DNA of 64,000 nucleotides from a virus (IMGVR_UViG_2568526092_000002:9536-73535); one strand, 5' to 3'. Positions 5,285-64,000 are shown, counted from the stretch's first letter. Notes: generated by a model not told the origin, from the letters alone. Translations and numbers: made by a program.

Positions 5285-5668
5285 TCATACGCTGAATGTC
5301 CCCGCTTTACGTCCAACCTGAAGCTTGTTAGATTGCAGGATGTAAAGGAGTTGAGCAGTTGTCACAGAACCACCGAACTTACTTTCAATCTCACGAGTCA
5401 GAACATCTTGAGCACGTTCAGGTCTCGGCAGGATTGCGGCAGGTTCTTCGACCAAAGTGTAGCTGTGAATACCGTCACCCAAGTTGTCAACACGAATCTT
5501 GTAGCCTTGCTTGTACAGTTCTTGGAGACGTGCCGCCCAACGCTGGCTGATTTCGTACATTTCGTAGTTAGCCAATCCTTTAGAACCTGCGTTACGCAGT
5601 GCGTTCAGCACCATCGCTCGTTGAGAAGTACGCTTCTGCGTATTAGGGTTGAATTTTATTGTTGTCAT
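5285..5668 (-). CDS. Winged helix-turn-helix DNA-binding protein
   Basis: SQRAMVLNALRNAGSKGL...ARLQELYKQGYKI pattern typical of phage wHTH (HTH_39-like); probable start MTTIK at 5668. Confidence 0.65.
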   Translation of the reverse strand: MTTIKFNPNTQKRTSQRAMVLNALRNAGSKGLANYEMYEISQRWAARLQELYKQGYKIRVDNLGDGIHSYTLVEEPAAILPRPERAQDVLTREIESKFGGSVTTAQLLYILQSNKLQVGRKAGTFSV

Positions 5669-5751
5669 GTGTCCCTGGCTCCGTTTCGATTGTTTGTTTT
5701 GCCTTACACTCACAGTAGTCAAGCCATCGACGTAAAAAGGTGCGATAAAAT

Positions 5752-5776
5752 AAAAAGACCCCCGAAAGGATCTTTT
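5752..5776 (-). terminator. Rho-independent terminator
   Basis: Minus strand AAGATCC-TTTCG-GGGGTCTT followed by a T-run, just after ORF 5775..6212. Confidence 0.75.
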
Positions 5777-6212
5777 AGGTCTTCTTGGCTTGGACTCTTG
5801 AGGTTAAGTTAACCATCGCCAGAGTAGGTACAGAAGCCGAAACGGGCGGCTGGACTTGGTATGGCTTGTCTCCTATAAAGGCAGTAGCGCCATTACCGGA
5901 CACCGCTATTGTTACGTTTGCCTCCTTATCTACTGCCTCAATGACAAGCACCGTTCTTGGGTTATCGTCGTGGATACCGCCCACCTTGGCGTAAACAGGG
6001 CATCCTGCCGCTGTTAATCTACTTGCGATATGCTGAACCAGTTCGGAGGTTACATGCGTATGGCTGGTCTTATACTCCCCTGCGTTTAATGTGATGGGGT
6101 AATCCGTTCCGTTGACAGTAACGACGATGTTGTCATTAGCTCCAGTTTTAATCTCTGTTTCTTGGGCAAGAGAAACGTTTCCCCACACCCTAATCCCTGA
6201 AGCTGTTGCCAT
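5775..6212 (-). CDS. Beta-rich hypothetical protein, possibly virion-associated
   Basis: 145 aa, AAAGGAG RBS; flanked by its own copy of the late-type promoter motif and a terminator. Confidence 0.7.
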   Translation of the reverse strand: MATASGIRVWGNVSLAQETEIKTGANDNIVVTVNGTDYPITLNAGEYKTSHTHVTSELVQHIASRLTAAGCPVYAKVGGIHDDNPRTVLVIEAVDKEANVTIAVSGNGATAFIGDKPYQVQPPVSASVPTLAMVNLTSRVQAKKT

Positions 6213-6241
6213 GTTATCACTCCTTTCAGACTAGTTATCTT

Positions 6242-6271
6242 CAATATAAGGTACTTACTTTAGTTAGTAAC
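6242..6271 (-). promoter_or_regulatory. Candidate phage-sigma promoter GTTA-N17-CTTATATTG
   Basis: Read directly; one of 8 copies with identical 17-nt spacing. Confidence 0.6.
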
Positions 6272-6291
6272 AAATAACAAAGAAGCCGTTA

Positions 6292-8877
6292 TTATGCGGC
6301 CTCCTCTTCTTCCTCTTCGTCAGCCTTCTCAGCAAACATACCGACTTCATACTCGATACCGAACTTGGAAAGCTTCTTCTTAACCTCTTCCTCGAAGATA
6401 TCTCTCCAATCCAAAGCACCTTCGTTCATAAGACGGATTTGCTCTTGCGAGAAGTTGCCGCCCCAATAAGGAGATACCTCAATATCCGATTTGAATTGGA
6501 CTCCTGCATCGTTAGGGATAACATTAGCCATCGTATCTGTAATCGCCTTTAGTACGGCTAGATCAACGGTCTCAGGGGCGTCGAAAATCAACTCGTCGTG
6601 TACCTGAAGGACAAGGTGGATATCATCCTTCTCAAGTTGAGAAACATAGCCGTTAATTACCCACTCACGACGGTTTAAGCACGTAGTTCCGTCTGGTCGT
6701 TTAGGGTAGAACAGTTCCACCATCGCCTTCTTGGATTGGTCAGCGCTTGAGCCCTGGATTTTGGCATTACAACTCTGCCGCTTGCACTTTTCAATTTTCC
6801 AGTGCCAACCAGAACGCTTCCACAGATCCTCCTGTTTAGCTTCAGCAATGGTCTCACCGAATCTGCGTTTGCGTCCAAGAACAGTCTCAATGTAGCCCTT
6901 CTCCATAACCTCTTTGTGGGTTGTTCCTTCCCACCTAAGGTAGTTAGGCATGGAGGACTTAAAGCCGTCAATCAGTTCCTTTGCTTCCTCTTTACTGGAT
7001 TCAATTTGGTCACTTAAGCCCAAGTCCGTAATACCGTAAATTACACCGAATACTACGGACTTGGTTTTCTTACGAAGTAACTCAAAAAATGTGGAAAGGC
7101 GTTCAATGGTCGGACGGACAATCTCCGTAGTAGAAGAGTTAGTGCCCTGTTCTTTACTGTTCATATAAGTTATTGCATAGATAAGTTCATGAGAACCTGC
7201 ATATTTCGTAATCGCTTCATCTACGTTAATGCTGGTCTCTTCTTCTGAATCCCCCTTGTAACCCCGAATCGTCTCGAACATATCATAGTCGAAGCTGTGA
7301 ATCTGGCATGTTACCCGACTGTGCATATCAAGCCCTAGCTTGAAGATATCAATGAGGGTTTGTTCCTGAGTAAAGATAGCCAACCAGCGCAATTCCTGTT
7401 GCGAGAAGTCTCCGCTGACCAGTAGTCTCCCACTAGGGGCACGGAAGGCATAGCGAATCAGGTCAAATTTAGATGGAATTTGCTGAAGGTTTGGTGCTGA
7501 ACAGGAAACACGTCCAGTCCTTACCAGTTGGTTGTAGGAACAGTGGATGATTCCTTCTACCGTATCGTCAGGAAGCTTATTACAGAAGGCATCAATTAGC
7601 TTCGACAGCCCACGGTATTCTAGAATATAGTCGATAATTTTGTGAGTCTTATCACCAAGGGTCACGGTTACCTTCTTATTCCTTGTAAGTACCTTCTTAC
7701 TTGTAGACAGCTTAGGTACTTTACGCTTTAGGTCTTTGTCGTAAACCATTTCAGTCTCAAGAATCTTATGCTCTACATATAGTTTGCTGGCTAGTTGTGC
7801 GGGAGAGCCTAGGTTAAACTCTTCCACTACTTCGTACTCTTCCTTAAACTTAATCCCTTGTCGCTGTCGGGTTCGTGACTTAATAAGAGTAATCGTTCCG
7901 CCTAAGACGGCGAAAATATCAGCCTTAAGTTCGTCCAATTTCTCTTGTAGAACTTTACCAATAATATCTTTCAGAAACTTGGAGTCTAGCTCTACTCCCC
8001 GTCGTTCTGCTGTAGCAAAAACAGCCAGCAATGGCATCTCAACTTCTCGGAAAAGACGGTAAACTCCGTCAAGTCCAAAAGATGGATTTTCCACAATGCT
8101 TTTTTGATATCTGAACACCCAATGAGTCATGAATACGTCATGGCAAGCATAGTAGTTAGCAAGCCTGTGAGGTATACTATCAAATGGAATCTTGTCGAAC
8201 ATGTTACCGAACTTAAAAGTTGGGCGGCTAAGTTCATCATGGCTCAATTTACCTTGCTCGATTAGCCAAGGAAGAGCGTAAGAGTTGTACCATTCCTTCA
8301 GACCTTTTGGTTTATTTTCGTTTAATAAACCGCCCATAATCATCGTGTCCCAATAGATATTAAACGTAATGTCAATATCTGCCCAATTCTTGAGTGCGTG
8401 AATGTCAAACTTTGCGTTTGCCATGACAATCATTTCCTCTTCTTCTAACAACGGTTTAAGAGCGGTTGATACCGTATCAAAAGACAAACATTCAACATTT
8501 ATCGACATTTCATGTAAAAAAGGGCGCATGGGTATATTAAAATACTCTTCTGATTCAAAACCTATGGAAATTGAGATTAAAGTGTCCCGCCAGTTGTTTA
8601 GTCCATAAGTCTCAGTGTCGAGATAGACATAGGCATCGCCTTGATACATCGTTTTATATGCTTTGTAGTAGTTGACTAATCGCTGAAGTAACTCAGGAGT
8701 ATTGATGAGCGTGTAATTGTCAGGCATGACGATCGATGCTTCTACGTCTAAGATTTTCTGTTCTTTCTTAGTGAGTTTCTTCGCCTTTTTAACTATTTCT
8801 GTATTCCTAGTGCGTGTGGTTCGGGCAGACTTCTTTTCGCCCTTAGTTAAAATGTTGATGACTTCGTTATCTGACAT
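6292..8877 (-). CDS. polA: Family A DNA polymerase (3'-5' exonuclease + polymerase)
   Basis: Exo I YLDTET; motif A GDFSQQELR; motif B RKKTKSVVFGVIYG; motif C LQVHDELIF all intact. Confidence 0.97.
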   Translation of the reverse strand: MSDNEVINILTKGEKKSARTTRTRNTEIVKKAKKLTKKEQKILDVEASIVMPDNYTLINTPELLQRLVNYYKAYKTMYQGDAYVYLDTETYGLNNWRDTLISISIGFESEEYFNIPMRPFLHEMSINVECLSFDTVSTALKPLLEEEEMIVMANAKFDIHALKNWADIDITFNIYWDTMIMGGLLNENKPKGLKEWYNSYALPWLIEQGKLSHDELSRPTFKFGNMFDKIPFDSIPHRLANYYACHDVFMTHWVFRYQKSIVENPSFGLDGVYRLFREVEMPLLAVFATAERRGVELDSKFLKDIIGKVLQEKLDELKADIFAVLGGTITLIKSRTRQRQGIKFKEEYEVVEEFNLGSPAQLASKLYVEHKILETEMVYDKDLKRKVPKLSTSKKVLTRNKKVTVTLGDKTHKIIDYILEYRGLSKLIDAFCNKLPDDTVEGIIHCSYNQLVRTGRVSCSAPNLQQIPSKFDLIRYAFRAPSGRLLVSGDFSQQELRWLAIFTQEQTLIDIFKLGLDMHSRVTCQIHSFDYDMFETIRGYKGDSEEETSINVDEAITKYAGSHELIYAITYMNSKEQGTNSSTTEIVRPTIERLSTFFELLRKKTKSVVFGVIYGITDLGLSDQIESSKEEAKELIDGFKSSMPNYLRWEGTTHKEVMEKGYIETVLGRKRRFGETIAEAKQEDLWKRSGWHWKIEKCKRQSCNAKIQGSSADQSKKAMVELFYPKRPDGTTCLNRREWVINGYVSQLEKDDIHLVLQVHDELIFDAPETVDLAVLKAITDTMANVIPNDAGVQFKSDIEVSPYWGGNFSQEQIRLMNEGALDWRDIFEEEVKKKLSKFGIEYEVGMFAEKADEEEEEEAA

Positions 8878-8989
8878 ACTGGCCCTCCCTATCGATATGA
8901 AAATAACGTTGTAATGAATATTATTGACTGTCGTGTTTAAATAGGGTATTTAATAACGAGGGCCATCTCAGCCCCTCACTCATTACAGA

Positions 8990-9646
8990 TTAGAATGGAA
9001 GTTTGCGTTGTGTTGCAGGTACTCCTTGTTGCTCATAGGCTGGCTGAACACCTTGTGGTGCATGATTATAAACGTTAGATTGAGTCTGGGCACCTGCTAC
9101 TAACGCTTGCATGAAATCTGCAATATCGTCTGGGCTATGTGGTGTAACTTGCGGTGTAATATCAGGCATCTGGTCGATTAATTCTTGCGTCGGGAAGTCC
9201 AGAACAGGTTTTCCAGCTTCAGGGTTTGTCACATAGCGGCGGGCACTATAGGCAGTGTCGGAAGCACCTCTACCAGTGCGGTAAAGGGTTACGAAGTTCT
9301 TAGTAGGGTCGCACTCGTCAAGATTGAATTCTTGGTTCAACTTTTGAACATGAGACTTAGCCAAAGAGACGAATTTGACTCTCTTCTCTATAGGGTCATA
9401 CACACGGAACTTAATCCGCAATGCAGGATATTTAAAAGGGTTTGCTTTGCAAAGTGGGCAAATGTCTTTGCCGGGGCAACGAATGTATTTAGGTGTCAGA
9501 CCGGATTCATAGTGCTCACGGATACCGAACAGGTCTTCAAACCAGTCAATGAAGAGCATAGTCATTGGCTTTCCTTCTTCAAAAGTAATGAATTCTGCAC
9601 CGCCAGAGAGAATTGCTCCAAGACCACGAACGACTGTGTTAGACAT
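8990..9646 (-). CDS. Putative single-stranded DNA-binding protein (phage gp32-like)
   Basis: EHY...CPGKDICPLC zinc-like motif, RxGxGxxDTxY segment and a low-complexity tail ending LPF; sits in the replisome cluster. Confidence 0.65.
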   Translation of the reverse strand: MSNTVVRGLGAILSGGAEFITFEEGKPMTMLFIDWFEDLFGIREHYESGLTPKYIRCPGKDICPLCKANPFKYPALRIKFRVYDPIEKRVKFVSLAKSHVQKLNQEFNLDECDPTKNFVTLYRTGRGASDTAYSARRYVTNPEAGKPVLDFPTQELIDQMPDITPQVTPHSPDDIADFMQALVAGAQTQSNVYNHAPQGVQPAYEQQGVPATQRKLPF

Positions 9647-10136
9647 AATGTGTTTCCTCCAATGTATTTTGTATTTGAGGTTCGCTGACCTCTTACTATT
9701 AGTCGTCGTTCCATCTTTTCAAAAAGGAGCGAATGACTTTTCAAGAAATTGGATAGGATATATTAAAAAGCGATTTAATCTTCTTTTAATATTTCTTCCT
9801 TAATATCAGTAGTAGATGTATCTCTTTGGAAATCTGTGTCATTTGCTTCAACTACTAAAGGATTGGGTAATTAATATGATCTGTAAAATTATAGATTTGT
9901 TACAAAACCTATTTTAATTGCACTGTTTTACAACATAGTGTATTGACACTACTCTAAGTGCAGTTGTAGAATGTTTCTATGAGATATTTGAAACATATAT
10001 AGGAACAGTTAAAGGTTTTTTAGGCAAAGTATGTTATACTTTAAAAGAGAGAAATACTGAAGCTAAAAACTCCCAAGACACTCTTACTAATATCTATCTA
10101 TGTATGTATATCTTCTAAGGTAGGTAAATTAGGGTG

Positions 10137-10667
10137 TTACCCCTGACATAATTTTTTTAACGTTTTCATCGCACGGGAAGCATGGGACTTGTTCAAGCCA
10201 AGTAAGTTAGAAATCTCTGTTGGCTTCATATCTATCCCTTCCTCTGTGAAGAGCATGAAATCAATGATTCGACGTTGTTGCGGTGTAAACATACAGAGGT
10301 TGTTCAAGTAATCAGTTTTTACGTCAGACAGTCCATAGCCTATCTCTTCAGTTGCGTACGAGAAGTAATCGATAGTTGAACCATATTCTTCATCTGCCCC
10401 ATCGCAAAAATTAACAGAGGTGCTGTTTTTGCTAATCATACGGTTGTTTTTGCGGTAGTAGTCAAATACTGCACGTTGAACGACAGTATGAGAGAATGTG
10501 AAGATATCTTTCTTAACTTGTCCTTTGTCGATGGCTGTAAGAATACGAAGCACAGCTTCTGATTGAACTTCTTCACGGTCTTCACTTCTCACGCCTTTCA
10601 GTATAAATTTGAAGATAGGTGTTAAGGACTCGATATCGAAGTTCGATATCGTTGTTTGAGTTGTCAT
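10137..10667 (-). CDS. Phage RNA polymerase sigma factor (sigma70/ECF-like, regions 2 and 4)
   Basis: Region 2: DREEVQSEAVLRIL...RAVFDYYRK; region 4 HTH: TPQQRRII...KPTEISNLLGLNKSHASRAM. Confidence 0.85.
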   Translation of the reverse strand: MTTQTTISNFDIESLTPIFKFILKGVRSEDREEVQSEAVLRILTAIDKGQVKKDIFTFSHTVVQRAVFDYYRKNNRMISKNSTSVNFCDGADEEYGSTIDYFSYATEEIGYGLSDVKTDYLNNLCMFTPQQRRIIDFMLFTEEGIDMKPTEISNLLGLNKSHASRAMKTLKKLCQG

Positions 10668-10771
10668 AGTTAATATTCCTCCAATGGTTTCATGTGTAAT
10701 GTGTTGCCAGTAATATCAGAGGTCGTTGCTTCGTTTGAGTAAGATGCGACTAAATTTGAATAGAATTTTGC

Positions 10772-11860
10772 TTACTGGAACATTGACCCGATTAGGTTCA
10801 CGTTGTAGGTGTCGAGACGGTCTAGTAAACAAGCATTAAGCAGTTCATTGCTGTCTTTGAGCGCAGGAAAGCTAGGGTAGCGTACACGGTTCACAACGAA
10901 CCCTGCCCTATCCAGTAAGATTGCGGCGTCTTGCATTCCCTTCTCGCCCGCTTTATCGTTGTCTAGCATCAAATCAATTTCCTCGATGCCAGCCAACTGC
11001 AACTCCCGAATTTGATTCCTGAAAAGAATACGTCCGTTAATCGAGATTGCGGGGATATCCACCTGATAGTTGGACATACAGTCAATAGGTGATTCGACCA
11101 TCCTGACTCGCCTAATTCGGTGTTTCGTGGTTCTAAGTGTGTTAATGAAATGGAGACCAAAAATAATATCTTTCTTTATCGCGCTGCCTTCATTAATGAA
11201 CTTAGTACCGTGATAGCTGTTGCCTATCTTTCTCTTCTGCACAAAACGGAGTTCTCCGGATCTCGTCCTCTGAGGGAATACAATTGTCGCAGTTGCAGTG
11301 TCAACACAGATTTCGTAGGTTTCGAGGGTTCTGTCGTTAAATCCCCTAGAACGCATGTAATTTATGCCAGTCTGATAGAGTAGTTCATTACTAGCCCTCG
11401 AATCTTTCATGCTAGTAAGAACGCTCTCTTCAAGATGGGGAATAACGTACTTGTTCCTGCGATTATCTATGAAGTCAACCATATCGAACGTTCTTCGTTT
11501 TTCTTCCTCGATGATATAGGTAGAAAGCAAAACTTTAATGCCCTCTCCTTCATTCAGGTCAAGAGCGTTCTCTATTAAAGTGTCTATTGTTCCTAAGTAG
11601 CCACAAAAAAAGCAGTTACAGTGATAGGGCGGTTCTTTAGAGATGCCAAAAGATGCCCTTGTTTCGGAATGTAATGGACAGCAACTCATGACCCATCCCC
11701 CCGTATCATTCAGTCCTGTGAATGCTTTAGGGTTACTTAGAACCTTCGAGAGATGCTGATACGAGAACCTGAGTTCATCTGTCAACTCTTCAGGATCAAT
11801 GTACAAGGATTCAAGAATCTCAATATTGGGATCCTCTTGTTTGAGAGAGAGATTAATCAC
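10772..11860 (-). CDS. dnaG: DNA primase (CHC2 zinc finger + TOPRIM)
   Basis: CCPLH...CxCFFCG zinc finger; VESPID and LDNDKAG TOPRIM motifs. Confidence 0.92.
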   Translation of the reverse strand: MINLSLKQEDPNIEILESLYIDPEELTDELRFSYQHLSKVLSNPKAFTGLNDTGGWVMSCCPLHSETRASFGISKEPPYHCNCFFCGYLGTIDTLIENALDLNEGEGIKVLLSTYIIEEEKRRTFDMVDFIDNRRNKYVIPHLEESVLTSMKDSRASNELLYQTGINYMRSRGFNDRTLETYEICVDTATATIVFPQRTRSGELRFVQKRKIGNSYHGTKFINEGSAIKKDIIFGLHFINTLRTTKHRIRRVRMVESPIDCMSNYQVDIPAISINGRILFRNQIRELQLAGIEEIDLMLDNDKAGEKGMQDAAILLDRAGFVVNRVRYPSFPALKDSNELLNACLLDRLDTYNVNLIGSMFQ

Positions 11861-12032
11861 TTCCCTTTCCCCCTATCTGGGCGAAACCGGGAGAGTGGAT
11901 TTCTATCTCGTCCTCATGAACATCGACGTGAACGTTGAAAAAGTTAGGGAAGTATTGGCAGTGAGCCGTTAACTCCTTACTCTCCTTATACGCTTCTAAG
12001 CTGATAGAGTTAAGGTACAGTTGTACCCACAT
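11853..12032 (-). CDS. 59-aa hypothetical protein between helicase and primase (below the ORF-track cutoff)
   Basis: Manual translation MWVQLYLNSISLEAYKESKELTAHCQYFPNFFNVHVDVHEDEIEIHSPGFAQIGGKGSD*; GGGAGG RBS; fills the gap exactly. Confidence 0.55.
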   Translation of the reverse strand: MWVQLYLNSISLEAYKESKELTAHCQYFPNFFNVHVDVHEDEIEIHSPGFAQIGGKGSD

Positions 12033-12051
12033 GGGCTAGTCCCTCCCTCTC

Positions 12052-13335
12052 TTAGAAGTATTGTTCGTTAATGGAATCATCCAGGAGAGAGACGATACCA
12101 GAGTCGAAGTCGTAGCGCACAAGGAACGATTGTCCGCTTGCATTTTCACGATTTTTTATGACCAAGATTCTAAAGGTGTTGTCACTCACTTTTACGATAG
12201 AGATGCCCTTTGAAGCATCCTGTACGATGGCGAAGGTTTCCCCAATATCTCCAGCATCAACGTTCTCCGTAATGTCCTTCTTTACTTTCTTAAGGGCATC
12301 GCGGTTCGCTTGAGCGACAACTATTGCGGGCTTACCAGTATCGAGAATTAAGTCTCGAACTCCTGCCGAAACATCATACAGGCGCTGTCTAAGGTCGCCG
12401 CTCCCCCGTGAGGGAAGTCGTAACTTTGATAATTGGTCGAGTGTCCAACGATTGTGTCCTTCTCGTTCGAGTATCCGGTGGATTTCGTCGAGCGTGTAAG
12501 GTTTGCCTCCATTACTCTTAAGGTCGTAAATTACCATGTCTTTCTTCTTCTGCTTAAGGCGGTCAATAAACTCCGCATAAGCATCTCTCTTTTCGTTAGA
12601 GAGCGTACCGCGTGTTAGAGCAAGCCGTGACACTTTGGCAAGTGTATTGTCCCAGTTATGGGCAATTTCTGACGCTCTTTGCTCCAAGGCGAAGTAGGCT
12701 GGATAGTCATCATCTAATGTACTGTTCCATGCCGCTGACATCATAAAGGATGATATGAGGGTCTTCCCCATGTTTGTTGGCGCAAACACGAGAAAGTAAT
12801 CGACCGCCCCATCTGTGTATTCAAGTCCGTTGGTCGCTAAATCTAGCGGCTTGAATCCAGTAGTCATTCCTATGATTTCATCTTTTGCCCTACCGTGGAT
12901 TTTGTCATAAGCATCGAGACGTTGTTGAGCATTTTCGATGTAGGAGTAGCCCTGACCCCTTAAGCCGATAGACTTCAGAAATCTTCCTGCTTCCATCTGA
13001 AGTTGCTGAATAGCCGCTGTCGTTTCCTTTTTGGCGAAAGTCTCCGAAGCAGATACCAGTATCGGTTTGAACTCCCTATAAAGAAAGTCCTCCCTCACCG
13101 CTCGCACAACGTGGTCGATGTTCTCCAATTCCACCAACTCAAACGTATCAAACTTGTTCATTACCGTTTCTATTGTTGGCAAGTATCCGTTTTTCTTTTT
13201 GAAGCCTTTGACGTACTCGAAGGTTTCTTTGTGTACCTGAAAGTAGTCCTCAGTAATACCTGCATCCTCGACAACGCCCCACTCTTTAACGTTTAGGATG
13301 TGGTTGAGTAGCTGAAGTTCTTCGATTGCCGCCAT
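12052..13335 (-). CDS. dnaB: DnaB-like replicative helicase
   Basis: Walker A APTNMGKT; DQLS and QANR motifs; KNRE near the C-terminus; probable start MAAIEE at 13335. Confidence 0.92.
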   Translation of the reverse strand: MAAIEELQLLNHILNVKEWGVVEDAGITEDYFQVHKETFEYVKGFKKKNGYLPTIETVMNKFDTFELVELENIDHVVRAVREDFLYREFKPILVSASETFAKKETTAAIQQLQMEAGRFLKSIGLRGQGYSYIENAQQRLDAYDKIHGRAKDEIIGMTTGFKPLDLATNGLEYTDGAVDYFLVFAPTNMGKTLISSFMMSAAWNSTLDDDYPAYFALEQRASEIAHNWDNTLAKVSRLALTRGTLSNEKRDAYAEFIDRLKQKKKDMVIYDLKSNGGKPYTLDEIHRILEREGHNRWTLDQLSKLRLPSRGSGDLRQRLYDVSAGVRDLILDTGKPAIVVAQANRDALKKVKKDITENVDAGDIGETFAIVQDASKGISIVKVSDNTFRILVIKNRENASGQSFLVRYDFDSGIVSLLDDSINEQYF

Positions 13336-13584
13336 TGTGTTCCCTCCCAATTTCCGATTACACTCTTAGTAGTCGAGTCATCTACGGAAAAAGGTGCGGC
13401 GTGATTCCAGCTAAGGCTCTATGTGACTTCATTTCCCTCATCGATTATGTACAAGTCAGACTTGTCCTCCTGACCAATTTTCAATAACAACACCCTTTAT
13501 GGGGATTTTTACCCCCCCTAATTTCAGGATAAAACATAATATTTCTTCCGCCGGAAAATTTAATCCTATATTATGGAAATAGAA

Positions 13585-13634
13585 AAGGACTCACCGAATA
13601 CAATTAGAAAAGTAATTGTATTCGGTGAATCCTT
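13585..13634. repeat. 22-bp inverted repeat (1 mismatch) with a 6-nt loop; terminator or cruciform
   Basis: AAGGACTCACCGAATACAATTA-GAAAAG-TAATTGTATTCGGTGAATCCTT. Confidence 0.85.
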
Positions 13635-16450: not shown

Positions 16451-16527
16451 GTACCCATTTCTTTCGCAAGCTCTTTAACACTGGGTATACCGTTCTCCTC
16501 CAGACGATACAAAGAGATCTGCCAATC

Positions 16528-56400: not shown

Positions 56401-58631
56401 ATGGACTTAAACAGTTCCTCCGCTGGAACAAGAATCTTCGCTCCTGTGTCATCTACTTTCGCTAGACCAAGTTCCTGCAATTTCTTCATGGCTTCAGGAG
56501 ATTGAAGTCTGTTGGCTACTTCTGCACTGTCGTCGCCGTAGTATGGATCAACCTGTGATTTATCCATCTTGTTCAGTGCACTAGGAGACTGTAATCTGTT
56601 CAGAATGGAGTTGTAGAAGTTACTGACATTCGCCCCTTCAAGTGATTTTGCTTGGAGGGTTGTACCCGCCATAACGATTGACGTTTCAGGGTCAACTTTG
56701 GAACTTGAACTTTTCAGTGCATCAATAAGTTGCTCAATACTTGCTTTTGTCACGTCGGATACAACCGCCAAAGGTTGTGCGATTCTATCCTCCAAGTCAG
56801 CCACCTCAAGTCCAAACTGAGCCTTCGTTGACTCAAGACCATTGGCGATATTGACAGGACTACTTCCAGGGGCTAGTGTATGCAACTGAGCAGTTACGCG
56901 GACAAACTCCTTCATTTCTATAGGATCATCAAGCAAACCAGAAGCGATGCCCCCTACTTGATAAAGCTGTTTGTAATCCGTACCGTAAAACATAGACTGC
57001 TGTCTTATAAAGTTTTGCAGATCACTAACAGCACTCTCCACGCCAGCCATGTTCGTCGTTCCAAGAGGGTTGCCGTCTTTGTCTTGGTTGTATTCGTCCT
57101 TCAACTTCAAGTTCCGCATCATTTTAATCTGTTCAGGCTGAATATTCTTAAACGCCTCAACCGCTTTAGACATCGCCATCATTAGAGCATTATCGAAGGC
57201 TCCCGAAATTCTTTGACGTATGATGTTAATGATTGCCCCTTGTACAGCTTCGGCGTTAACCGCTCCCGACCCACTATCCTTTTCACTGCTACTGCTTCCT
57301 TTAGATGCAGTTCCTCCACCGTCGCTGTGACTGTCAGAAGAAGACGAACCAGAACGAGGAGTAGAAAGGCCAAGTTTTCCTGCATTCCGAATCTGAGTAT
57401 CACTGTTAAGTCCACCTGGTCCGGATTGAACCTTATTAATCTCTTGGATGATAGACTGCACCTGAACGTTTACCTGCTCACGGATTTTGTTAATCAACGC
57501 ATTGTTGATGCGGTTAATCTGATTCACGAGGTGATGCTTTAGCTTAGGTTCAGGGGTGATTTCCACATCGTGTATTGCCTTTATTAATTGGTCAATCTCT
57601 TCCTGAACATTGTTGCTCATTTTCTTGTCAAGAGCCTTAGCCACTCGTTCAAGTTGAGCCTTCAATCCAGCGCCACGAATAGAGCCTAAATCGACCGTGC
57701 CGAGCGCTTCCAGCTTGTCCACCGTCGTGTCAAGTTCCTGAGCAAGAATTTTCTTGACCTTCTTGCTCAGGTCGCCTAATGGAATCTGCATCTTGCCCGC
57801 CATTGCAGTGTTAATTCCTGCAACGGTTTTGTTGACGTATTCATTCAGGCTTTGTTCAAGTTCGTTAGGGATTCTCTTTACCTTGTCCGCAACTTCCATT
57901 CCGCTCATGTCAGGAACTTCAACATTTATTGCCTTCAACAATTTTTCCTTAGCTTCCTTGATTACCTTGTTCAAATCTGCCTTGGAAATTTTCATGTCAC
58001 TGGCATCAGCTACGTCAGGGTTCTGAAGAATACTCAAAATCTTTTGTTTGATTTTATTGACGAAAGCCATGACCGTTTCCTTGCCAATCGTAATCTGTAA
58101 ACTGTCAAGAGTTTCCGATTTCATCAGATTGGATTTTTGCTTTTGGATAGCACTGACAAGGTTGCGAATTTGCAGTTTGATGACCTTGGCTACTTCTTTA
58201 TTAATCTCGTTAAAGTCATCTTTACTGATAGGAAGCTTCTGTCCGCTGGCGTAGTTAGGGTCGATTTCAATGTGCATGTTACGAACGTACGTCCGCAAAT
58301 CCTCGTTGATTTCATTTTCTACTTTGCCCAAGATACCTTGAAGAGTCTCAGGTTTAACCGTGAGCCCAGCCGAACCTAACTGCTCAAGGACAATCCCATT
58401 CCCTGCGATGAGATTGTTGAGTTCATTTGTCAACGACTGACGGAGATTGCTTCCAGCCTCACGTGATACCTGCGATTGCAAACCGGACAGGGACGAACGC
58501 ATTGCGTCAATCCGCTGCTCTAATCTACCAAAACGAGAATCGAGAGTTTCCATCTCCTGCCCATATCGAGCCATATTATCTATGGATTTCTGCAACTCTA
58601 AAATCACGTCAGTTTGGATTTTGCTGTTCAT
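53424..58631 (-). CDS. Tail tape measure protein
   Basis: 1735 aa, largely helical/coiled-coil, follows the chaperone pair; central TMP-like helical region. Confidence 0.88.
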   Translation of the reverse strand: MNSKIQTDVILELQKSIDNMARYGQEMETLDSRFGRLEQRIDAMRSSLSGLQSQVSREAGSNLRQSLTNELNNLIAGNGIVLEQLGSAGLTVKPETLQGILGKVENEINEDLRTYVRNMHIEIDPNYASGQKLPISKDDFNEINKEVAKVIKLQIRNLVSAIQKQKSNLMKSETLDSLQITIGKETVMAFVNKIKQKILSILQNPDVADASDMKISKADLNKVIKEAKEKLLKAINVEVPDMSGMEVADKVKRIPNELEQSLNEYVNKTVAGINTAMAGKMQIPLGDLSKKVKKILAQELDTTVDKLEALGTVDLGSIRGAGLKAQLERVAKALDKKMSNNVQEEIDQLIKAIHDVEITPEPKLKHHLVNQINRINNALINKIREQVNVQVQSIIQEINKVQSGPGGLNSDTQIRNAGKLGLSTPRSGSSSSDSHSDGGGTASKGSSSSEKDSGSGAVNAEAVQGAIINIIRQRISGAFDNALMMAMSKAVEAFKNIQPEQIKMMRNLKLKDEYNQDKDGNPLGTTNMAGVESAVSDLQNFIRQQSMFYGTDYKQLYQVGGIASGLLDDPIEMKEFVRVTAQLHTLAPGSSPVNIANGLESTKAQFGLEVADLEDRIAQPLAVVSDVTKASIEQLIDALKSSSSKVDPETSIVMAGTTLQAKSLEGANVSNFYNSILNRLQSPSALNKMDKSQVDPYYGDDSAEVANRLQSPEAMKKLQELGLAKVDDTGAKILVPAEELFKSIAQKLSGADSPTVRNTNDALFGTYQSSKGAATMHKIMNTFVKVMEVSGKFDKSKYENMVKSSVDNPLVNTKRAGQSISIAFDALVQEMTPTINKVSYALMNMAENVTKNAQLFVKLGDVLTNVLIGMMLLKGVKWGAGKIGANFERESARTSFLENVSGMNVDNSIKNMTRKEVGEMQKDPLLGGYLRDLNGLTEKQRKHYENYLDSNKVEVKDLPTLFSTMDEAKNWNPGKELTDDEKFDRTKQYNSRLSTRTELASVITPTLLTTLNSSTASRGVFDTQRASDTNYSELSNRMSQMSQGEFQGFENHLVDRQRNGLPPIDDIQKLNNAMDDYEKTQREAAASARQASPAFGDLSNAVRGMNSGMSSTASLKNGFKQFLKDIPDLSKGALVSVKNLAGGFAKMAMEIAGAIGLAQAAKGLTESYLSTDDERLLAQADDRDNDLKGMSNKINAQAEGEASWALARNTATGLYYSAMNGISSAFGGTPSNFGYFEGDDMMGEMMDFFKFSGSQVDFSKWLKQREASGGQTVEEAVAEFNTKSGRSAETEKIRQKAITKQYEASKLEEAEQKRLEEIAKKNYEEKYKKGAVNSPSIDSDSVLSRVSDRINEIKDTSQIDTLRALMSGMKTDSDEYIALRKKQTESMRQVLNEELDIIDKYIANAKTVMDSADPESQEYKDAKTAYDNLTSTRDKVASEGEVDILREEWNTKQDSYQSQVRKVNNSLSRIDLIAQAKELAAAYNMDTQSQEYLDTMKKITLTKLSQMKNELANLQAIQAIGDLSEDQATQVLQLQNEIANEQALIKEYNLASIGIGRAKIQDNSSERENELLELKLRTGNPDDSSPILRNKRIANAKEEVSEINQVIADLKAKLPSAGADETTKINAEIRDLQKQSLQAQLGILDEMKSTAGTFNMPNGVNAMSRYEYLTRGNTHNTTTIGTGDVTVNITLPNITNGMTNRQLQQVGQSIGQGLSVGRVGNLRSQQAMNPSNYRS

Positions 58632-58695: not shown

Positions 58696-59040
58696 TTATA
58701 ATAGCTGTGCAAGGAAATTCATGTCTTCCGCATCGGCTACTTTATAACCATTCACGTATTTACCGTCAGTTGTTACTTCCTCTTCACTGGTTGAATCATC
58801 AGCAGGAACGCTTCCGCCGAACAGACCGCCAAGCGACATGGTAGAAACCTTGATAGTAAACTGAATGTGTTCGTTGCATTGTTCCAAGTAGTAACCTAAC
58901 TGAGGTAAGGTTAACTGCCACACATCATGCTTTTTCAAGTGGCAATAGTGGGCAAGTTTGAAGAAGATGTTAGCCCAATCGACAGGCGGCTGACTGTCAT
59001 AGTCTTCTTCCTCTTCCTGAGTGGTTACATGGACTTTTTT
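58696..59040 (-). CDS. Tail assembly chaperone, frameshift-extension (T-like) part
   Basis: In the -1 frame relative to the upstream chaperone, entered at the slippery site; DWANIFF...W.LT.PQL pattern. Confidence 0.75.
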   Translation of the reverse strand, partial: KKVHVTTQEEEEDYDSQPPVDWANIFFKLAHYCHLKKHDVWQLTLPQLGYYLEQCNEHIQFTIKVSTMSLGGLFGGSVPADDSTSEEEVTTDGKYVNGYKVADAEDMNFLAQLL

Positions 59041-59483
59041 AGCCCATTGAGACCAATCATGCAATCGATAATCTGTTTAGCCGTCTCCAAATCAACGTAC
59101 TCGCCAAGATGCTCGACCGTCATGTGTTTGTAATATGGCTTAAATGCCATAAGGAGCACTTCAAGCAATTCTTCAAATCTATCTTCCCCATCTTCAGGGA
59201 TAAGGTTAGCGATGATTACACCGGAATCAATCGTATTAAGTCTCTTCATCAATCTTCGAGCATCAAGCAACCCTAGTGGTGGGATGTAATAAGTCTTACC
59301 GTCACGTAAACGAACCTGTTCATCTGTCTCGAAGAATACTTTCTCGCGAATGTCAGCTTCCTCTTGGGTCAGTGGCTTCTTCTCTTCTTCAGCTGTTACC
59401 TGTGGAGTCTGCTCTTCTACTTGACTGGCTACTTCTTCAGCGATGCCGCCAGCTTTTGGGATAACTAAATCTCGTTCACTCAT
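59025..59483 (-). CDS. Tail assembly chaperone (G-like)
   Basis: Between the major tail and tape measure genes; probable start MSERD at 59483. Confidence 0.8.
   Translation of the reverse strand: MSERDLVIPKAGGIAEEVASQVEEQTPQVTAEEEKKPLTQEEADIREKVFFETDEQVRLRDGKTYYIPPLGLLDARRLMKRLNTIDSGVIIANLIPEDGEDRFEELLEVLLMAFKPYYKHMTVEHLGEYVDLETAKQIIDCMIGLNGLKKSM
59034..59040 (-). other. Programmed -1 ribosomal frameshift site A AAA AAG
   Basis: GGG CTA AAA AAG TCC ATG TAA at the end of the chaperone; the -1 frame is open into ORF 58696..59064. Confidence 0.85.
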
Positions 59484-59572
59484 TTTAATAGCCCCCTTTA
59501 TATTTCTCCCCCAAGAAAAGTGAATCGAATTGACCACAGAGCGGGGGAAGTCCCTGCAATCAACTCACAGAA

Positions 59573-59642: not shown

Positions 59643-60701
59643 TTAGCAATCTTCCGCAGATACAGAACCAACTTCGTAACGCTTGATAGAACCAAGCTTA
59701 CCGTCCGGACGTTCAGGGTCGATTACAGTCAGCGTTACGCTATGCGTGGACGCTTGTTGACGTTGTGCGTCGAGAGTGAAGTTGGACTTCACACGGCATT
59801 GGAACAACTCAGTTTGATAACCTTGGATTGTACCGTCCTTCTGCTCGAACTGACCATCGTGAACAACGTGTACTGTCAACGGCATGTCCTTGGTTGTGAT
59901 ATCGAGGATATCAACAACTTCGTTCCGCTTGTAGTTGACATAAATGTTTACATCATTGAGGGCCGAGTTGAACTTCAGAATGCCGCCACTTACTAAGTAC
60001 TGGTCTTCAGTAGGAGTAGAGCTAGTCGTTTTCTTCAGCAATTTGTTACCTTGCAGAGTACGAACAGAAATCTGAGGGTCAACGTTCAGGGATGCTCCGT
60101 ACACAAGATCAACAGTAAAGTCTGAGCCGTTCTGTTTAACCGTGTGCTTTTCTTCCAGCACCCACACGAAGCCGTCAGGGTCTGGTGTAATCCCAGCCAG
60201 TGCCGCAGCGTAAACGATGACAACCGTTTTACCTGCCAGCGCCATATCGAATACGACATCCTGACCCGTTACCGTAACGTCTGCACTCAGGTCAGCGCCG
60301 CCCACAGCACCCTCGAAAGACTTAGGTGTTGGAGAAGCAAGAGCGACTTGAGTAAGTTTCGCTTGATACGGAGAAGCGGAAGGGACTACAAAGGTCTCAG
60401 TGACCATGCTGTACGCCGAACCAGAAATTCCTTCACGGAGTTTCGAGCCAGTAGCCAAACGTACAAGGTTAAGGTCGAACTTAGCGGATTCCGCTGTGAT
60501 ATCAATTGTCTTCTTACGAAGCAACGTATCCAGTGCTACGCTAGAGTCACCGCCCTCAATGTCCTGCATGTCCAGCTGAATATCCAGACGCATGTTGTTC
60601 AGCGTACCGATTGTAACGAGGTCGTCACAGTTCGGGATTTTCGCCATGAACTTACCAGCGCCCTTAATCAACATTTTTTTGTTCTTAGTAATCTTACTCA
60701 T
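59643..60701 (-). CDS. Major tail (tube) protein with internal insertion domains
   Basis: Position before the chaperones and tape measure; beta-rich; no sheath gene nearby. Confidence 0.75.
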   Translation of the reverse strand: MSKITKNKKMLIKGAGKFMAKIPNCDDLVTIGTLNNMRLDIQLDMQDIEGGDSSVALDTLLRKKTIDITAESAKFDLNLVRLATGSKLREGISGSAYSMVTETFVVPSASPYQAKLTQVALASPTPKSFEGAVGGADLSADVTVTGQDVVFDMALAGKTVVIVYAAALAGITPDPDGFVWVLEEKHTVKQNGSDFTVDLVYGASLNVDPQISVRTLQGNKLLKKTTSSTPTEDQYLVSGGILKFNSALNDVNIYVNYKRNEVVDILDITTKDMPLTVHVVHDGQFEQKDGTIQGYQTELFQCRVKSNFTLDAQRQQASTHSVTLTVIDPERPDGKLGSIKRYEVGSVSAEDC

Positions 60702-61163
60702 TCAGAAAACCTCCTTATATTCATCTATCCCAATGGTGAAGCATATTTGGGTGAAATACTTGTAGGTGTTCTCTAGATCAATGTCGTCTTCAGCACTTGT
60801 GACATACTCACCCTTGAACACACTTCCTTTTGGCATCCAAAAGTATTGGACGTCGAAAATTTGGCAAATACGGTCAGCGATGTTCACTGCCAGTTCCACG
60901 TCATCCTGTGTATAGATATCGAAGTCAACGATGAACCTATACTCAAGGTGATTTTCGCCTCTTGCGCCAGGATTTTTGTAGAACGTAATCAAGGGCAAGT
61001 TGTGCTGAACTAAGTCCTTCGGCTTCTTCCTCTTCTGAATCTTCGTTCCCAAATCTTCCAGAGAAGTGTCTGCCGCCAGCCCTAGCATGGCAAAAATCTC
61101 AGGGTCATGACGAAGCGTGGAATGAATATAGGCGTAAACATCAGAGACGCTGATCTTTCCCAT
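60702..61163 (-). CDS. Tail terminator/completion-like protein
   Basis: Directly upstream of the major tail gene; LPLITFY...FDIYT...IADRI pattern; probable start MGKISV at 61163. Confidence 0.6.
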   Translation of the reverse strand: MGKISVSDVYAYIHSTLRHDPEIFAMLGLAADTSLEDLGTKIQKRKKPKDLVQHNLPLITFYKNPGARGENHLEYRFIVDFDIYTQDDVELAVNIADRICQIFDVQYFWMPKGSVFKGEYVTSAEDDIDLENTYKYFTQICFTIGIDEYKEVF

Positions 61164-61167
61164 ATCA

Positions 61168-61432
61168 TCACATCCTCTTATGAATGCTTCGTATACCAAT
61201 ATAAGTTGAAATGGGTATATTTCTAACCGCCCTGTGTACTGCGTTGTCCACCATCGAAATGGACTTATTAAGGCTATATTCGAACAGTGAGACGGTGGAA
61301 TCTCTACCTAAATGGTTCTTTTTCATTCTATTAGGAGCGCTCCTGACGTTGGATTCATGGATGTTGTCGCCCAAGTCTACCCACTGCCCATAGGGTCTTT
61401 AGAAGCTAAGTAGCTGGTGTGTGTTCTATCGA
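61168..61432 (-). pseudogene. Decayed neck/tail-completion-like gene
   Basis: Short broken frames (…PYGQWVDLGDNIHESNV…IPISTYIGIRSIHKRM*) at the position where such a gene normally lies; stop overlaps the RBS of the next gene. Confidence 0.35.
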
Positions 61433-61465: not shown

Positions 61466-61804
61466 TTACTTGATTTCGATAATGGATGCCACAGGCTGGC
61501 TACCCGAAGTCATAAATAGCTTCCGAGCCTTGAAAGCCTTTTGCTCCTTGAAAAGCAAACGTTGCTCTTCATTGCCCACTCGGAGATTCGGCTTGTCACT
61601 AACATAGATATCTCCGAAGCCCAAGTTCTCGACAATCAAGGTTGTATCTTCTTCTTGAGCGTTATAAATGAACTGACCGAAGATAGAAAGTTGTTGGGTG
61701 AACTCTGCAACCACATCGCCCTCCAATCCATCCACGCTAACCGTCTCGGTCTCTTTCTCAGGGGCTTTAGGAGTCCTCTTCCGTTTGTTTGTTGTTCCTG
61801 CCAT
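61466..61804 (-). CDS. Hypothetical protein, first intact gene of the tail operon
   Basis: 112 aa, GAGGGGAG RBS. Confidence 0.7.
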   Translation of the reverse strand: MAGTTNKRKRTPKAPEKETETVSVDGLEGDVVAEFTQQLSIFGQFIYNAQEEDTTLIVENLGFGDIYVSDKPNLRVGNEEQRLLFKEQKAFKARKLFMTSGSQPVASIIEIK

Positions 61805-61954
61805 TGTTAAAATGCTCCCCTCATTGTGATATGTAATAATTCAAACCAAGTAAAAAGTCGTCCACTAATTTCTGACCAGACTTGTGTTCAGACGGGTAAA
61901 CATGTTCTTTCAGCATCCCAAACTTCTTACCACCTTTCTGTCTTTGTCACAAGT

Positions 61955-61984
61955 CATTATAGGTAGGTGGAGTCTCGCTTTAAC
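61955..61984 (-). promoter_or_regulatory. Candidate late promoter GTTA-N17-CCTATAATG heading the tail operon
   Basis: Read directly. Confidence 0.6.
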
Positions 61985-62349: not shown

Positions 62350-62628
62350 ATGAGAGCAAGCACGTACGGCGTGGTAAAGGACGTAGAAAACGAGAGGTAT
62401 TTACTGGCGGCTGACCTATTCGAGAGAGGGTTGAATGCTTCGGCTATTACCACATACCTTGCGGTGACGAAGCTTCTGAGCGATGGTAGGACGGAGTTCC
62501 CGTTGCAAGATGAAATCGTAAAGCTGACTAAACTGAGCAGGAAAACAGTTGTCATATCGTTACAGGCTTTGGAGGATTGCGGACTACTGGTCTACGTTTA
62601 TACCAAAAGAAACAGAGCCACGGCGTAA
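62350..62628 (+). CDS. wHTH protein (HTH_36-like), possibly truncated
   Basis: EFPLQDEIVKLTKLSRKTVVISLQALEDCGLL; GAGAGG RBS; the only plausible intact plus-strand gene. Confidence 0.65.
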   Translation: MRASTYGVVKDVENERYLLAADLFERGLNASAITTYLAVTKLLSDGRTEFPLQDEIVKLTKLSRKTVVISLQALEDCGLLVYVYTKRNRATA

Positions 62629-62862
62629 GTTGCCTGTGGCTTTGTCTTTAGTTTCTGGATGCCCCCATGAGGGAAGGCATTGGCCAGTGTTCCAGTTCTT
62701 CAGGGTCTTTTGCAAAGTCCATGTTCAAGTCTTCCCATTTGATGTTCGGGTTGATTTTCCACGATGCCCGATAGATGACATTATCTCTGGAAACTCAGGG
62801 TCTTGTCCCTGTTTGTACTTGTACATCTCTTCCGAATCGGCAAATTCAGCTATATCAATCCA
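62600..62862 (-). pseudogene. Putative terminase large subunit relic
   Basis: Frameshifted fragments WIDIAEFADSEE and IYRASWKINPNIKWEDLNMDFAKDPEE, recalling the [ST]WE[VI]NP...ED...F..DP motif of large-phage TerL proteins (recalled, not searched). Confidence 0.45.
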
Positions 62863-63004
62863 TCCCTTCTAAGCGCATATCAAAACGTTCAATCATAAAC
62901 TCGAAAACGGCAGACAGGTTTCCCTCAAAATAGTGGTCAGCCACCTCCTGCAAATACTTTTTATTCTCCGGAGTTGTTCTCAAGTAGATTCTCTCTGTTT
63001 TCAT
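62855..63004 (-). CDS. 49-aa ribbon-helix-helix-like protein (below the ORF-track cutoff)
   Basis: Manual translation MKTERIYLRTTPENKKYLQEVADHYFEGNLSAVFEFMIERFDMRLEGMD*; GAGAGGG RBS; start overlaps the upstream stop. Confidence 0.65.
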   Translation of the reverse strand: MKTERIYLRTTPENKKYLQEVADHYFEGNLSAVFEFMIERFDMRLEGMD

Positions 63005-63264
63005 CACGATAACCCTCTCTTCTTCATACACGGTCTACAGCCAGTGAGTGTTTTTGGCAGAACTTGCATCCGTTGGTTAGAATCATCTAACTCTTCAGGC
63101 AAGACCAAGTAGCCGTATCGGTTCATGACTTTTCCCGTAATTTTACCGATACAATGGAGACAAAGCAGGGGTTCTCCTTGAAGCCCTTCGGCAACAAAGT
63201 TCTCCCTTGCTTTATCTGTGACGTACCTGAACTCGCACTTAATGCACTTGATTAGCGAATCCAT
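63004..63264 (-). CDS. Zinc-ribbon hypothetical protein
   Basis: CIKC...CLHC. Confidence 0.6.
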   Translation of the reverse strand: MDSLIKCIKCEFRYVTDKARENFVAEGLQGEPLLCLHCIGKITGKVMNRYGYLVLPEELDDSNQRMQVLPKTLTGCRPCMKKRGLS

Positions 63265-63776
63265 TTTACGTCAATCCCTTTGTTCGACTTCTTACCGGAA
63301 AGAGTCAAGTGTGATTGAGATGGGAACGATTCTTCAAAGCCGTCACGCACCGCATACTCCGCAGTGTTGACAATCGTATTTCGGCAAACCAGCCAACGCT
63401 TCTCTTCTCGAACCAATCCATTGTACGGGTCAATAGCGAATCTCTTGATTGGCTTACTAAATTCCTTGTGCCAATGCCCACAATATGTAACGTTCAAAGG
63501 TTTTACAGGCTCAAGCTTGTCCATTACAAAATAAATTGGTTCTCTTGGATACATATATTGTATATATATTCCACCTTTACTGAGTTTTATGACTCCTTCA
63601 ATATAGTCACCGTTCAGTAGAATACGAAAGTTATGTTCATTAGTCTTGGCGAAGTCAATCGCTCTATCAAGCAACCTAATATCGGCGGCTTCAGACCCGA
63701 TATGCAAATCATTAAGTAATAGTACATTCAAGTTCTTCACCGATGGGGCGGTAAAACCTGATTTCAGGTATTTCAT
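63252..63776 (-). pseudogene. Calcineurin-like metallophosphoesterase with an in-frame internal deletion
   Basis: DLH, NGD and GHxH motifs present, but the intervening GNH[DE] and H motifs are absent; only ~40 aa between NGD and GHWH. Confidence 0.6.
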
Positions 63777-63778
63777 TG

Positions 63779-64000
63779 TTATCCCCCTAGTCCAAGTAAT
63801 TTTCTACGTATCTCCGCTTTCTTCTTATCTTGAGCACAAGGTCGGCACTCGTAAATTCCCATGTACCTATCCACTAACTCTTGATAAGGAACATTCAAGG
63901 TATCCGATAGACAGTGGATACATTTACTGCCTTCCGTCTCATAGATAGTGGCTAGAGCCTTTGCATTCTGCGTAATAAACCTTCCGCAACCGCATTTCAA
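63779..64000 (-). CDS. Cys-rich hypothetical protein (may extend beyond the window)
   Basis: CxC...CxxC...CxxC; reaches the window edge. Confidence 0.55.
   Translation of the reverse strand: MKCGCGRFITQNAKALATIYETEGSKCIHCLSDTLNVPYQELVDRYMGIYECRPCAQDKKKAEIRRKLLGLGG

Follow-up and report, generated by a model that had tools for sequence, protein, structure and literature searches.

The DNA analysed here, called the window below (64 kb, bases 9536-73535 of IMGVR_UViG_2568526092_000002), belongs to a single-contig virus record of the provirus type that is 73,535 bp long. From its gene content, it is best explained as most of an element of about 71 kb that would be a chromosomally integrated derivative of a 126-kb siphophage of the Jenst/L010 type. 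Remnants of head and packaging genes stand in this element next to a tail module, a lysis cassette and a replication block that have remained open. All long open reading frames (ORFs) of the window lie on the minus strand, tRNA genes are absent and the GC content is about 45%. The last base of the record is the start of a gene, namely the start codon of the homologue of gene product 176 (gp176) of phage Jenst, which suggests that the provirus was trimmed at gene boundaries and is not a complete replicon.

Gene content and descent from a Jenst-type phage

Megablast with queries of 12-20 kb gave no match in phage and plasmid collections. A related phage is Brevibacillus phage Jenst (Jenstvirus jenst, NC_028805), whose major tail protein (MTP) is 83% identical, and a head-bearing relative nearer than Jenst is the viral contig L010. 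Jenst is a siphovirus of 126 kb with a head of 87 nm and a tail of 286 nm as seen by transmission electron microscopy (TEM) (PMC4909266). In whole-genome alignment, the window is collinear with Jenst from the terminator to the lysis genes (about 16.5-61.2 kb against Jenst 20.5-60.8 kb) and across the replisome block (5.2-15.8 kb). The correspondence is gene for gene, at 50-87% amino acid identity; the tape measure has the same length and the late-promoter motif is common to both. In comparison with Jenst and L010, the element is devoid of thymidine kinase (TK), the large terminase subunit (TerL), gp169, portal, gp167, gp166, the major capsid protein (MCP) and three connector genes, and also of the plasmid-type rep/par arm, the tRNAs and most genes of nucleotide metabolism and recombination. 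Jenst ORFs were scored as kept when at least 80% of their length was covered:

Tail ORFs: 20 of 21 kept
Lysis and integrase ORFs: 4 of 5 kept
Replisome ORFs: 8 of 13 kept
Head ORFs: 0 of 8 kept
Other early ORFs: 8 of 68 kept

In place of the 8.5 kb that in Jenst carry the capsid gene together with gp172, TK, TerL, gp169, portal, gp167 and gp166, the window has about 1.2 kb. Six deletions and an insertion of about 370 bp were mapped at the nucleotide level against L010 (blastn). One deletion of 4.1 kb took the remainder of the portal gene, gp167, gp166 and MCP, and another of 1.4 kb took gp163, gp162 and most of gp161. The features of this region are listed below; ratios of nonsynonymous to synonymous substitution (dN/dS), here and further on, were computed between the window and the copy of the element in Paenibacillus amylolyticus (dS about 0.15-0.3).

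61171-61398, minus strand: relic of the gp161 connector (C-terminus, aa 131-209); gp163 and gp162 are absent
61466-61804, minus strand: gp164-like protein of 112 aa, without the first ~29 aa of the Jenst homologue (dN/dS 0.28)
61827-61892, minus strand: portal relic, aa ~113-134 (tblastn with the Jenst portal)
61955-61984, minus strand: copy of a late-promoter-like motif, directly upstream of the tail operon
62350-62628, plus strand: winged helix-turn-helix (wHTH) gene, Pfam HTH_36 (E 1.9e-7), inside the ~370-bp insertion relative to L010
62654-62827, minus strand: TerL relics, aa 246-265 and aa 266-288 in two frames at 62699-62826 and aa 538-555 at 62654-62707
62855-63031, minus strand: gp173 homologue of 58 aa (PHROG of unknown function)
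63004-63264, minus strand: gp174 homologue of 86 aa (tblastn, PHROG search), kept in all head-less loci
63252-63776, minus strand: gp175 exonuclease/phosphoesterase with an in-frame internal deletion of ~80 aa (dN/dS 0.51)
63779-64000, minus strand: gp176 homologue of 73 aa, Cys-rich, first gene of the late operon (tblastn, 79% identity over 73 aa; phrog_32445)

A previous interpretation of the window, made without database searches and referred to here as the sequence-only reading, had stated that neither terminase, portal, protease nor capsid gene lies upstream of the first tail gene. The ORF layout upstream of 61466-61804 confirms this. The frameshifted TerL-like fragments that it had placed at 62600-62862 were recovered by tblastn with Jenst TerL at 62654-62826, and over 131 nt the relic is 93.9% identical to the intact L010 TerL gene (blastn), indicating that the loss of the head in this clade is not ancient. 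The phosphoesterase had rightly been described as internally deleted, with 174 aa against 254 aa in Jenst gp175 and the frame preserved; it is more eroded, or gone, in other head-less loci. The wHTH gene noted upstream of the tail operon is likewise real, as judged by its Pfam match. A conserved role in regulating the tail operon was rejected, the gene being confined to the closest copies and frameshifted in four of them. The ribbon-helix-helix (RHH) gene called at 62855-63031 found no support in Pfam or PHROG, and only the homology to gp173 stands. The gp176 homologue is present in nearly all head-less relatives. The gp164 gene, which follows the capsid gene in Jenst, is the first gene retained past the head deletion in most head-less loci. 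Its family combines a conserved C-terminal beta-barrel of about 85 aa (a very confident prediction) with a disordered, Lys/Glu-rich N-terminal arm of variable length. The fold was considered as a clue to the role of the protein and set aside, since matches in PDB and BFVD were only to generic cupin-like beta-barrels.

Intact terminase, portal and capsid genes were also looked for elsewhere in the same replicon, as their presence would speak against a head-less element. The remaining 9.5 kb of the record contain no head gene of the element. A near-identical provirus of 120 kb (G008) runs 45 kb beyond the end of the window and encodes there Schlafen/AlbA, DNA ligase, SRAP and RHS proteins, and no head protein was found in this extension. 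In five host genomes that carry the element, a six-frame whole-genome search with Jenst TerL and MCP recovered only the same TerL relic. The intact TerL, portal and MCP that make a functional Jenst-type phage are thus lacking, and so are the heads with which gene transfer agents (GTAs) and PBSX-like defective phages package host DNA.

The tail module, by comparison with Jenst, is practically complete:

60702-61199, minus strand: tail terminator, homologue of Jenst gp160 (77% identity)
59643-60701, minus strand: MTP, 83% identical to Jenst gp159 ('virion structural protein'; dN/dS 0.09)
58696-59537, minus strand: tail assembly chaperone pair G/GT, with a -1 slippery site A_AAA_AAG at 59034-59040
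53424-58631, minus strand: tape measure protein (TMP) of 1735 aa, collinear with the Jenst TMP of 1738 aa
32713-53365, minus strand: conserved tail-tip/baseplate block (Pfam; full-length ORFs in relatives)
18692-32679, minus strand: variable receptor-binding-type genes of 679 aa, 972 aa (LamG), 772 aa (RCC1 propeller) and 2188 aa (two CBM96) (Pfam)

The AlphaFold model of the terminator (pLDDT 67, moderate) matches lambda gpU, T5 p142, SPP1 gp17, the monocin cap (9j1j) and the R2 pyocin collar in Foldseek (E ~4e-4). In two related loci (L008, L009) the terminator gene looks frameshifted, and in Paenibacillus sp. NPDC057934 (L025:9425-11047) terminator and MTP are read as a single ORF of 540 aa. 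The slippery heptamer lies six bases ahead of the stop of the tail chaperone gene; in 29 related loci it stands unchanged at this position, while neighbouring synonymous sites vary. The tip block encodes a predicted Peptidase_M23+3D wall hydrolase of 1162 aa (48195-51683) in which the HxxxD/HxH motifs are present, a PKD protein of 886 aa and a DUF2460 protein of 606 aa (Pfam). Four other head-less elements encode this block at full length apart from the 1289-aa gene (37295-41164), whose length varies, and dN/dS in the block is mostly 0.03-0.13 (0.35 at 47693-48157 and 0.21 at 37295-41164). The receptor-binding-type genes diverge strongly among copies, with saturated dS. No Pfam sheath family was matched among the tail proteins. 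A 418-aa protein of the module (34011-35267) is full length in all head-less elements compared and has a Jenst counterpart of 119 aa.

The motif GNTA-N17-CYTAKAWTG is found nine times in the window, always on the minus strand, against 0.04 matches expected. In Jenst it precedes gp169, portal and gp167, and L010, like Jenst, has copies upstream of its portal gene. The DNA around the copy at 61955-61984 is homologous to L010 2528-2926, upstream of the L010 portal gene.

Lysis, replication and early genes complete the window:

18384-18602, plus strand: relic of the integrase, a tyrosine recombinase (aa 1-24 and aa 238-278 of the Jenst integrase)
16528-18290, minus strand: lysis cassette with holin-like proteins of 106 aa and 113 aa, an Amidase_2 endolysin of 259 aa and a 100-aa protein
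6292-15968, minus strand: replication block of seven genes (dN/dS and Pfam)
4583-4850, minus strand: relic of an ATP DNA ligase (tblastn with Jenst ORFs)
2967-4085, minus strand: 372-aa protein, homologue of Jenst gp075 ('virion structural protein'; dN/dS 0.06)
1381-1519, minus strand: relic of a RecB-type exonuclease (tblastn with Jenst ORFs)
1005-1076, minus strand: relic of an RNA ligase (tblastn with Jenst ORFs)

The replication block encodes, in this order, an initiator (HTH_36), a DnaC/IstB-type loader, a DnaB helicase, a Toprim/CHC2 primase, a sigma factor of 176 aa, a protein of 218 aa and PolA. The initiator as called has a dN/dS of 0.35, and its real start is probably near 15720. PolA (6292-8877) is a family-A polymerase with a 3'-5' exonuclease, read as a single uninterrupted ORF of 861 aa with motifs A, B, C and ExoI present; the gene is split by endonuclease or other inserts in Jenst and in two further genomes (G021, G009). 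The sequence-only reading had described an intact set of initiator, loader, helicase, primase, single-stranded DNA-binding protein (SSB) and PolA. All of these are open, as judged by dN/dS and motifs, with the exception of the SSB, for which no ORF gave a Pfam or PHROG match. Its view that the lysis, sigma and tail genes are intact, with catalytic motifs, agrees with the PolA motifs, the M23 motifs and the amidase domain seen here. Besides the integrase fragments at 18384-18602, no recombinase was matched by Pfam among the ORFs scanned. Decay outside the head region, also part of that reading, is borne out by the relics of integrase, ATP DNA ligase, RecB-type exonuclease and RNA ligase; its DUF3846 frameshift found no support in Pfam or PHROG.

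The 372-aa protein has an N-terminus paralogous to a 128-aa tail protein (47303-47689) and an HExxH metallopeptidase motif (HEIGH). It is kept beside the sigma genes even in elements without a replisome and may be an enzyme that associates with the tail, its gene standing apart from the tail operon. The 9.5 kb of the record that lie outside the window hold a sigma factor of 319 aa, a thioredoxin, an IS200, broken DDE transposases, a Peptidase_G2 fibre-like ORF and Gam reduced to fragments. The insertions in this early region (record 1520-2050 and 5134-7714) are an IS200-type Y1 transposase and two broken DUF772/DDE copies, found neither in the P. amylolyticus copy nor in Jenst. The left end of the record (1-1301) encodes Peptidase_G2 (an intramolecular chaperone) and YadA-head-like fibre ORFs, and at the same boundary of G008 only an inverted 74-bp fragment of the Peptidase_G2 gene remains.

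Selection, relatives and movement after head loss

In P. amylolyticus, too, gp164 is immediately preceded by the portal relic. This shared junction implies that the ancestor common to this copy and the window element was already head-less, and the substitutions that separate the two copies postdate the loss. Over this interval, dN/dS is 0.03-0.27 in the conserved tail genes (MTP through 36202; 0.35 in one small gene), 0.11-0.40 in the lysis cassette (0.11-0.12 for the holin-like and amidase genes, 0.12 for the amidase itself), 0.07 and 0.12 in the sigma factors of 176 aa and 319 aa, and in the replication block 0.12 for PolA, 0.15 for the primase, 0.11 for DnaB, 0.09 for the loader and 0.21 for the 218-aa protein. 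The relic region, for the same pair, shows 13% divergence and 45 gap positions in 752 aligned columns. The conserved tail ORFs have near-equal length, and no stops, in P. amylolyticus, P. massiliensis, P. tengchongensis and Brevibacillus laterosporus at 55-98% identity, being full length in the last three at 55-75% identity. The tail, lysis, sigma and replisome genes are therefore under purifying selection since the loss of the head, and neutral decay of the tail and replisome genes, which the sequence-only reading had named as an outcome that would overturn it, is rejected by dN/dS values far below 1.

The element was found, by means of its MTP, in large chromosomal contigs. The closest copies are those of P. 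vandeheii (98%), P. polysaccharolyticus and P. amylolyticus (97%, in a complete chromosome), and further carriers are eight Paenibacillus-type genomes, B. laterosporus and many IMG/VR proviruses. The element of P. vandeheii strain F6_3S_P_1C is 98-100% identical to the window. In 12 of 12 chromosomal loci of Paenibacillus and Brevibacillus, the 10 kb upstream of MTP are without TerL, gp169, portal, gp167, gp166 and MCP. B. chungangensis (L033) and most viral contigs are likewise head-less, and the complete head set is found in Jenst, L010, L017 and elements of the B. tequilensis type. The remainder between gp174 and MTP varies, with TK in some loci, gp163-gp162 in one, a full gp161 in one and the terminator gone in a few, an erratic pattern that would be expected if the connector genes became dispensable. 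PolA and DnaB are open and adjoin the tail module in six genomes with head-less elements (PolA at 65-99% identity) and are absent from seven others. In the elements without replisome from P. massiliensis and B. laterosporus, the small sigma factor (176 aa) comes directly after the lysis genes, and behind it lie in turn the 372-aa protein, the larger sigma factor (319 aa) and thioredoxin. The retention of both sigma genes in such elements indicates that the sigma factors belong to the conserved core and that the replisome is optional.

In trees of MTP and TMP, Jenst and L010 fall within well-supported clades of head-less elements, and the starred branches force at least three changes. A model restricted to losses would call for four or five losses of the head. 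In all head-less elements examined, that of the window included, the early and late blocks are co-directional, whereas they are opposed in the head-bearing relatives. A single origin of all head-less elements, considered because of this arrangement and because all of them resume at gp164, is disfavoured by the nesting of L010 and Jenst. This nesting, together with a TerL relic 94% identical to the L010 gene, favours repeated loss or exchange of the head module. Loss on several occasions from an L010-type ancestor and exchange of head and tail modules are both possible.

Relative to the window element, the copy in P. amylolyticus (chromosome 139,967-206,312) is circularly permuted, with its opening between the lysis genes and the initiator (window 15787-16522). 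Its order is replisome, sigma, gp176, tail and lysis, against gp176, tail, lysis, replisome and sigma in the window. The flanks of this copy are 243 bp apart in P. vandeheii, where they form an empty site (G001:C46, ~286,659-286,902), and P. vandeheii's own copy sits elsewhere, in the permutation of the window. The TMP tree places the permuted copies (P. amylolyticus, P. polysaccharolyticus) inside the group of window-type copies, and the relics are common to all of them. The nested permuted copies and the empty site imply that the head-less element passed through a circular or tandem intermediate and took a new site. The P. amylolyticus copy retains another piece of the integrase (aa 9-68), and the different fragments held by the two copies indicate that the integrase decayed independently after the change of site. 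A search for direct repeats at both ends of G008 gave no candidate attachment (att) site above chance. An empty site for the permutation of the window was not found, the G008-type flanks not being adjacent in P. amylolyticus or P. polysaccharolyticus and consisting of variable island DNA. The selective retention proposed in the sequence-only reading stands, with 20 of 21 tail ORFs kept against 0 of 8 head ORFs. Its word 'domesticated' goes too far, since chromosomal site and permutation changed after the loss of the head.

Interpretation and comparison with known systems

Judged by its genes, the element is probably a producer of head-less, non-contractile tails that is akin to the F-type tailocins, is maintained by selection and has its own replisome; the particles most likely act as tail-only killing particles. 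The features on which membership in the F-type tailocins is judged were found as follows. The siphovirus-type tail is complete and has no sheath, the element has no capsid, portal or terminase of its own, the lysis cassette is its own, and the locus is held by selection rather than decaying, at an insertion site that is not conserved. Upon induction, the two sigma factors of the element would drive the GNTA-N17-CYTAKAWTG promoters, including the copy before the tail operon. Initiator, loader, DnaB, primase and PolA would amplify the locus, in situ or as an excised circle, and this amplification would raise gene dosage, or else the replisome would be needed for late transcription. Assembly on the 1735-aa tape measure would give tails of about 285 nm, which the terminator would cap, and holin and amidase would lyse the producer and free them. 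Exchangeable receptor-binding proteins (LamG, RCC1, CBM96) would then attach the tails to related bacteria, whose wall the M23/3D hydrolase would breach, and these cells would be killed without delivery of DNA.

Several points weigh against this interpretation. The F-type tailocin loci known to us so far have no replisome. The retained gp164 is not explained by a tailocin model. The terminator is absent in L026, L028 and L031 (B. laterosporus) and fragmented in L032, so that capped tails are not universal among the relatives. In the distal tail genes dS is uneven, from 0.5 to more than 1, which indicates recombination, and part of the ORF integrity could thus have been imported from functional phages. 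The host-genome search had Jenst TerL and MCP as its sole queries, the heads of unrelated prophages lying outside its scope. Finally, a fixed weapon of the host would account for the varied sites and permutations less well than a mobile selfish element.

This last point bears on a helper-dependent satellite that would replicate itself, build tails and use the capsids and packaging functions of a co-infecting phage of the Jenst/L010 type. A change of site and permutation after a shared head deletion, unrelated loci in many species of two genera, and a complete replisome under purifying selection would suit such a satellite; it has its own replication module, close head-bearing relatives such as L010 exist in sequence collections, and its 66-73 kb are about half of the 126-kb Jenst headful. 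This reading is nevertheless considered unlikely. A functional integrase or excision function is not present, the integrase being merely a relic, and no TerS-like ORF, TerL or recognisable packaging function is left, gp172 at the TerS position having been lost. The connectors gp163, gp162 and gp161 are lost or erratic and the terminator is missing in some lineages, the five host genomes hold no resident Jenst-type head genes (TerL and MCP queries), and many relatives without replisome still hold the tail and lysis genes. In the satellites known to us, moreover, tail genes are scarce or absent, whereas here they occupy 43 kb. A broader proposal, to which we give only a small chance, is that of a mobile, long-lived, capsid-less and self-replicating lineage caught at several stages of reduction. 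It would be either a tail-forming satellite, as the mirror image of the capsid-forming phage-inducible chromosomal islands (cf-PICIs), or a tailocin that, as the first of its kind, uses a complete phage replisome to amplify the locus encoding it.

The locus could also serve as a reservoir of tail and receptor-binding modules for recombination, in superinfection interference or in the formation of cell-bound adhesive structures. The distal tail genes are mosaic and exchanged between elements, and head-bearing phages nested among head-less elements are compatible with phages that acquire tail modules from such loci. A reservoir leaves unexplained the purifying selection on lysis, terminator, chaperone frameshift, sigma factors and late promoters as one unit, and we know of no precedent for these roles, which appear improbable. 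An ordinary defective prophage in neutral decay that happened to lose its head module first is very improbable: the many relics across the early region, the IS insertions, the integrase relic, the eroding exonuclease and a TerL relic still 94% identical to the L010 gene speak for it, but since the two copies split, after the head was lost, dN/dS has stayed far below 1 in the replisome and over some 43 kb of tail genes, no stops interrupt the conserved tail genes in copies at 55-98% identity, the slippery heptamer does not vary, several lineages have lost the head specifically and the pattern of retention is far from random.

If the interpretation as a tailocin-like producer holds, a large and widespread family of F-type tailocins would exist in bacteria associated with soil and insects, which find use in biocontrol. 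No report of a siphovirus-type tailocin of Paenibacillus or Brevibacillus was found in a literature search, and among Bacillota the monocins are the only F-type tailocins known to us. In at least one genome paper, which apparently relied on an automated prophage caller, several Paenibacillus genomes are credited with an 'intact' prophage that resembles Jenst; this label would be wrong if the regions concerned are head-less copies. A graded series exists from complete phage to head-less element with replisome to head-less element without replisome, and with an apparently repeated loss of the head and datable relics it opens the passage from phage to tailocin to direct test. Two questions arise from the movement of the element and from the replisome and sigma factors that it has kept, namely whether amplification serves particle yield and whether the element spreads with borrowed capsids. 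For retargeting, a conserved chassis that bears variable LamG, RCC1 and CBM96 proteins would be a natural platform.

The element can be compared with three known systems. Like the capsid-forming PICIs, it is chromosomal and phage-derived, with one half of the virion genes, a replication module and signs of mobility. It differs in retaining the tail half, in having neither packaging genes nor a functional integrase, and in its size of 66-73 kb against about 15 kb. With the PBSX-type defective prophages and the R-type tailocins of Bacillales, whose particles are inducible and whose loci also occur in Paenibacillus and Brevibacillus, it shares a phage origin and its own lysis genes. Those particles have contractile, sheathed tails, PBSX heads package host DNA, and neither homology to the Jenst-type module nor a replisome is found in these loci; the particle described from B. 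laterosporus is PBSX-like and contractile (PMC9406221).

The closest likeness is to the F-type tailocins, i.e. the F-pyocins of Pseudomonas aeruginosa, the monocins of Listeria monocytogenes and rhizoviticin, which are chromosomal clusters derived from siphophages, as the element is. They have the same set of MTP, G/GT chaperone, TMP, terminator or cap, tip and receptor-binding proteins, their own holin and lysin, and likewise no capsid, portal or terminase. Known F-type clusters are roughly 10-20 kb. The element exceeds them with a tail module of about 43 kb from a 126-kb phage, and is set apart from them by two phage sigma factors, a full replisome in this subclass, relics of TerL, portal and integrase, and movement after the loss of the head.

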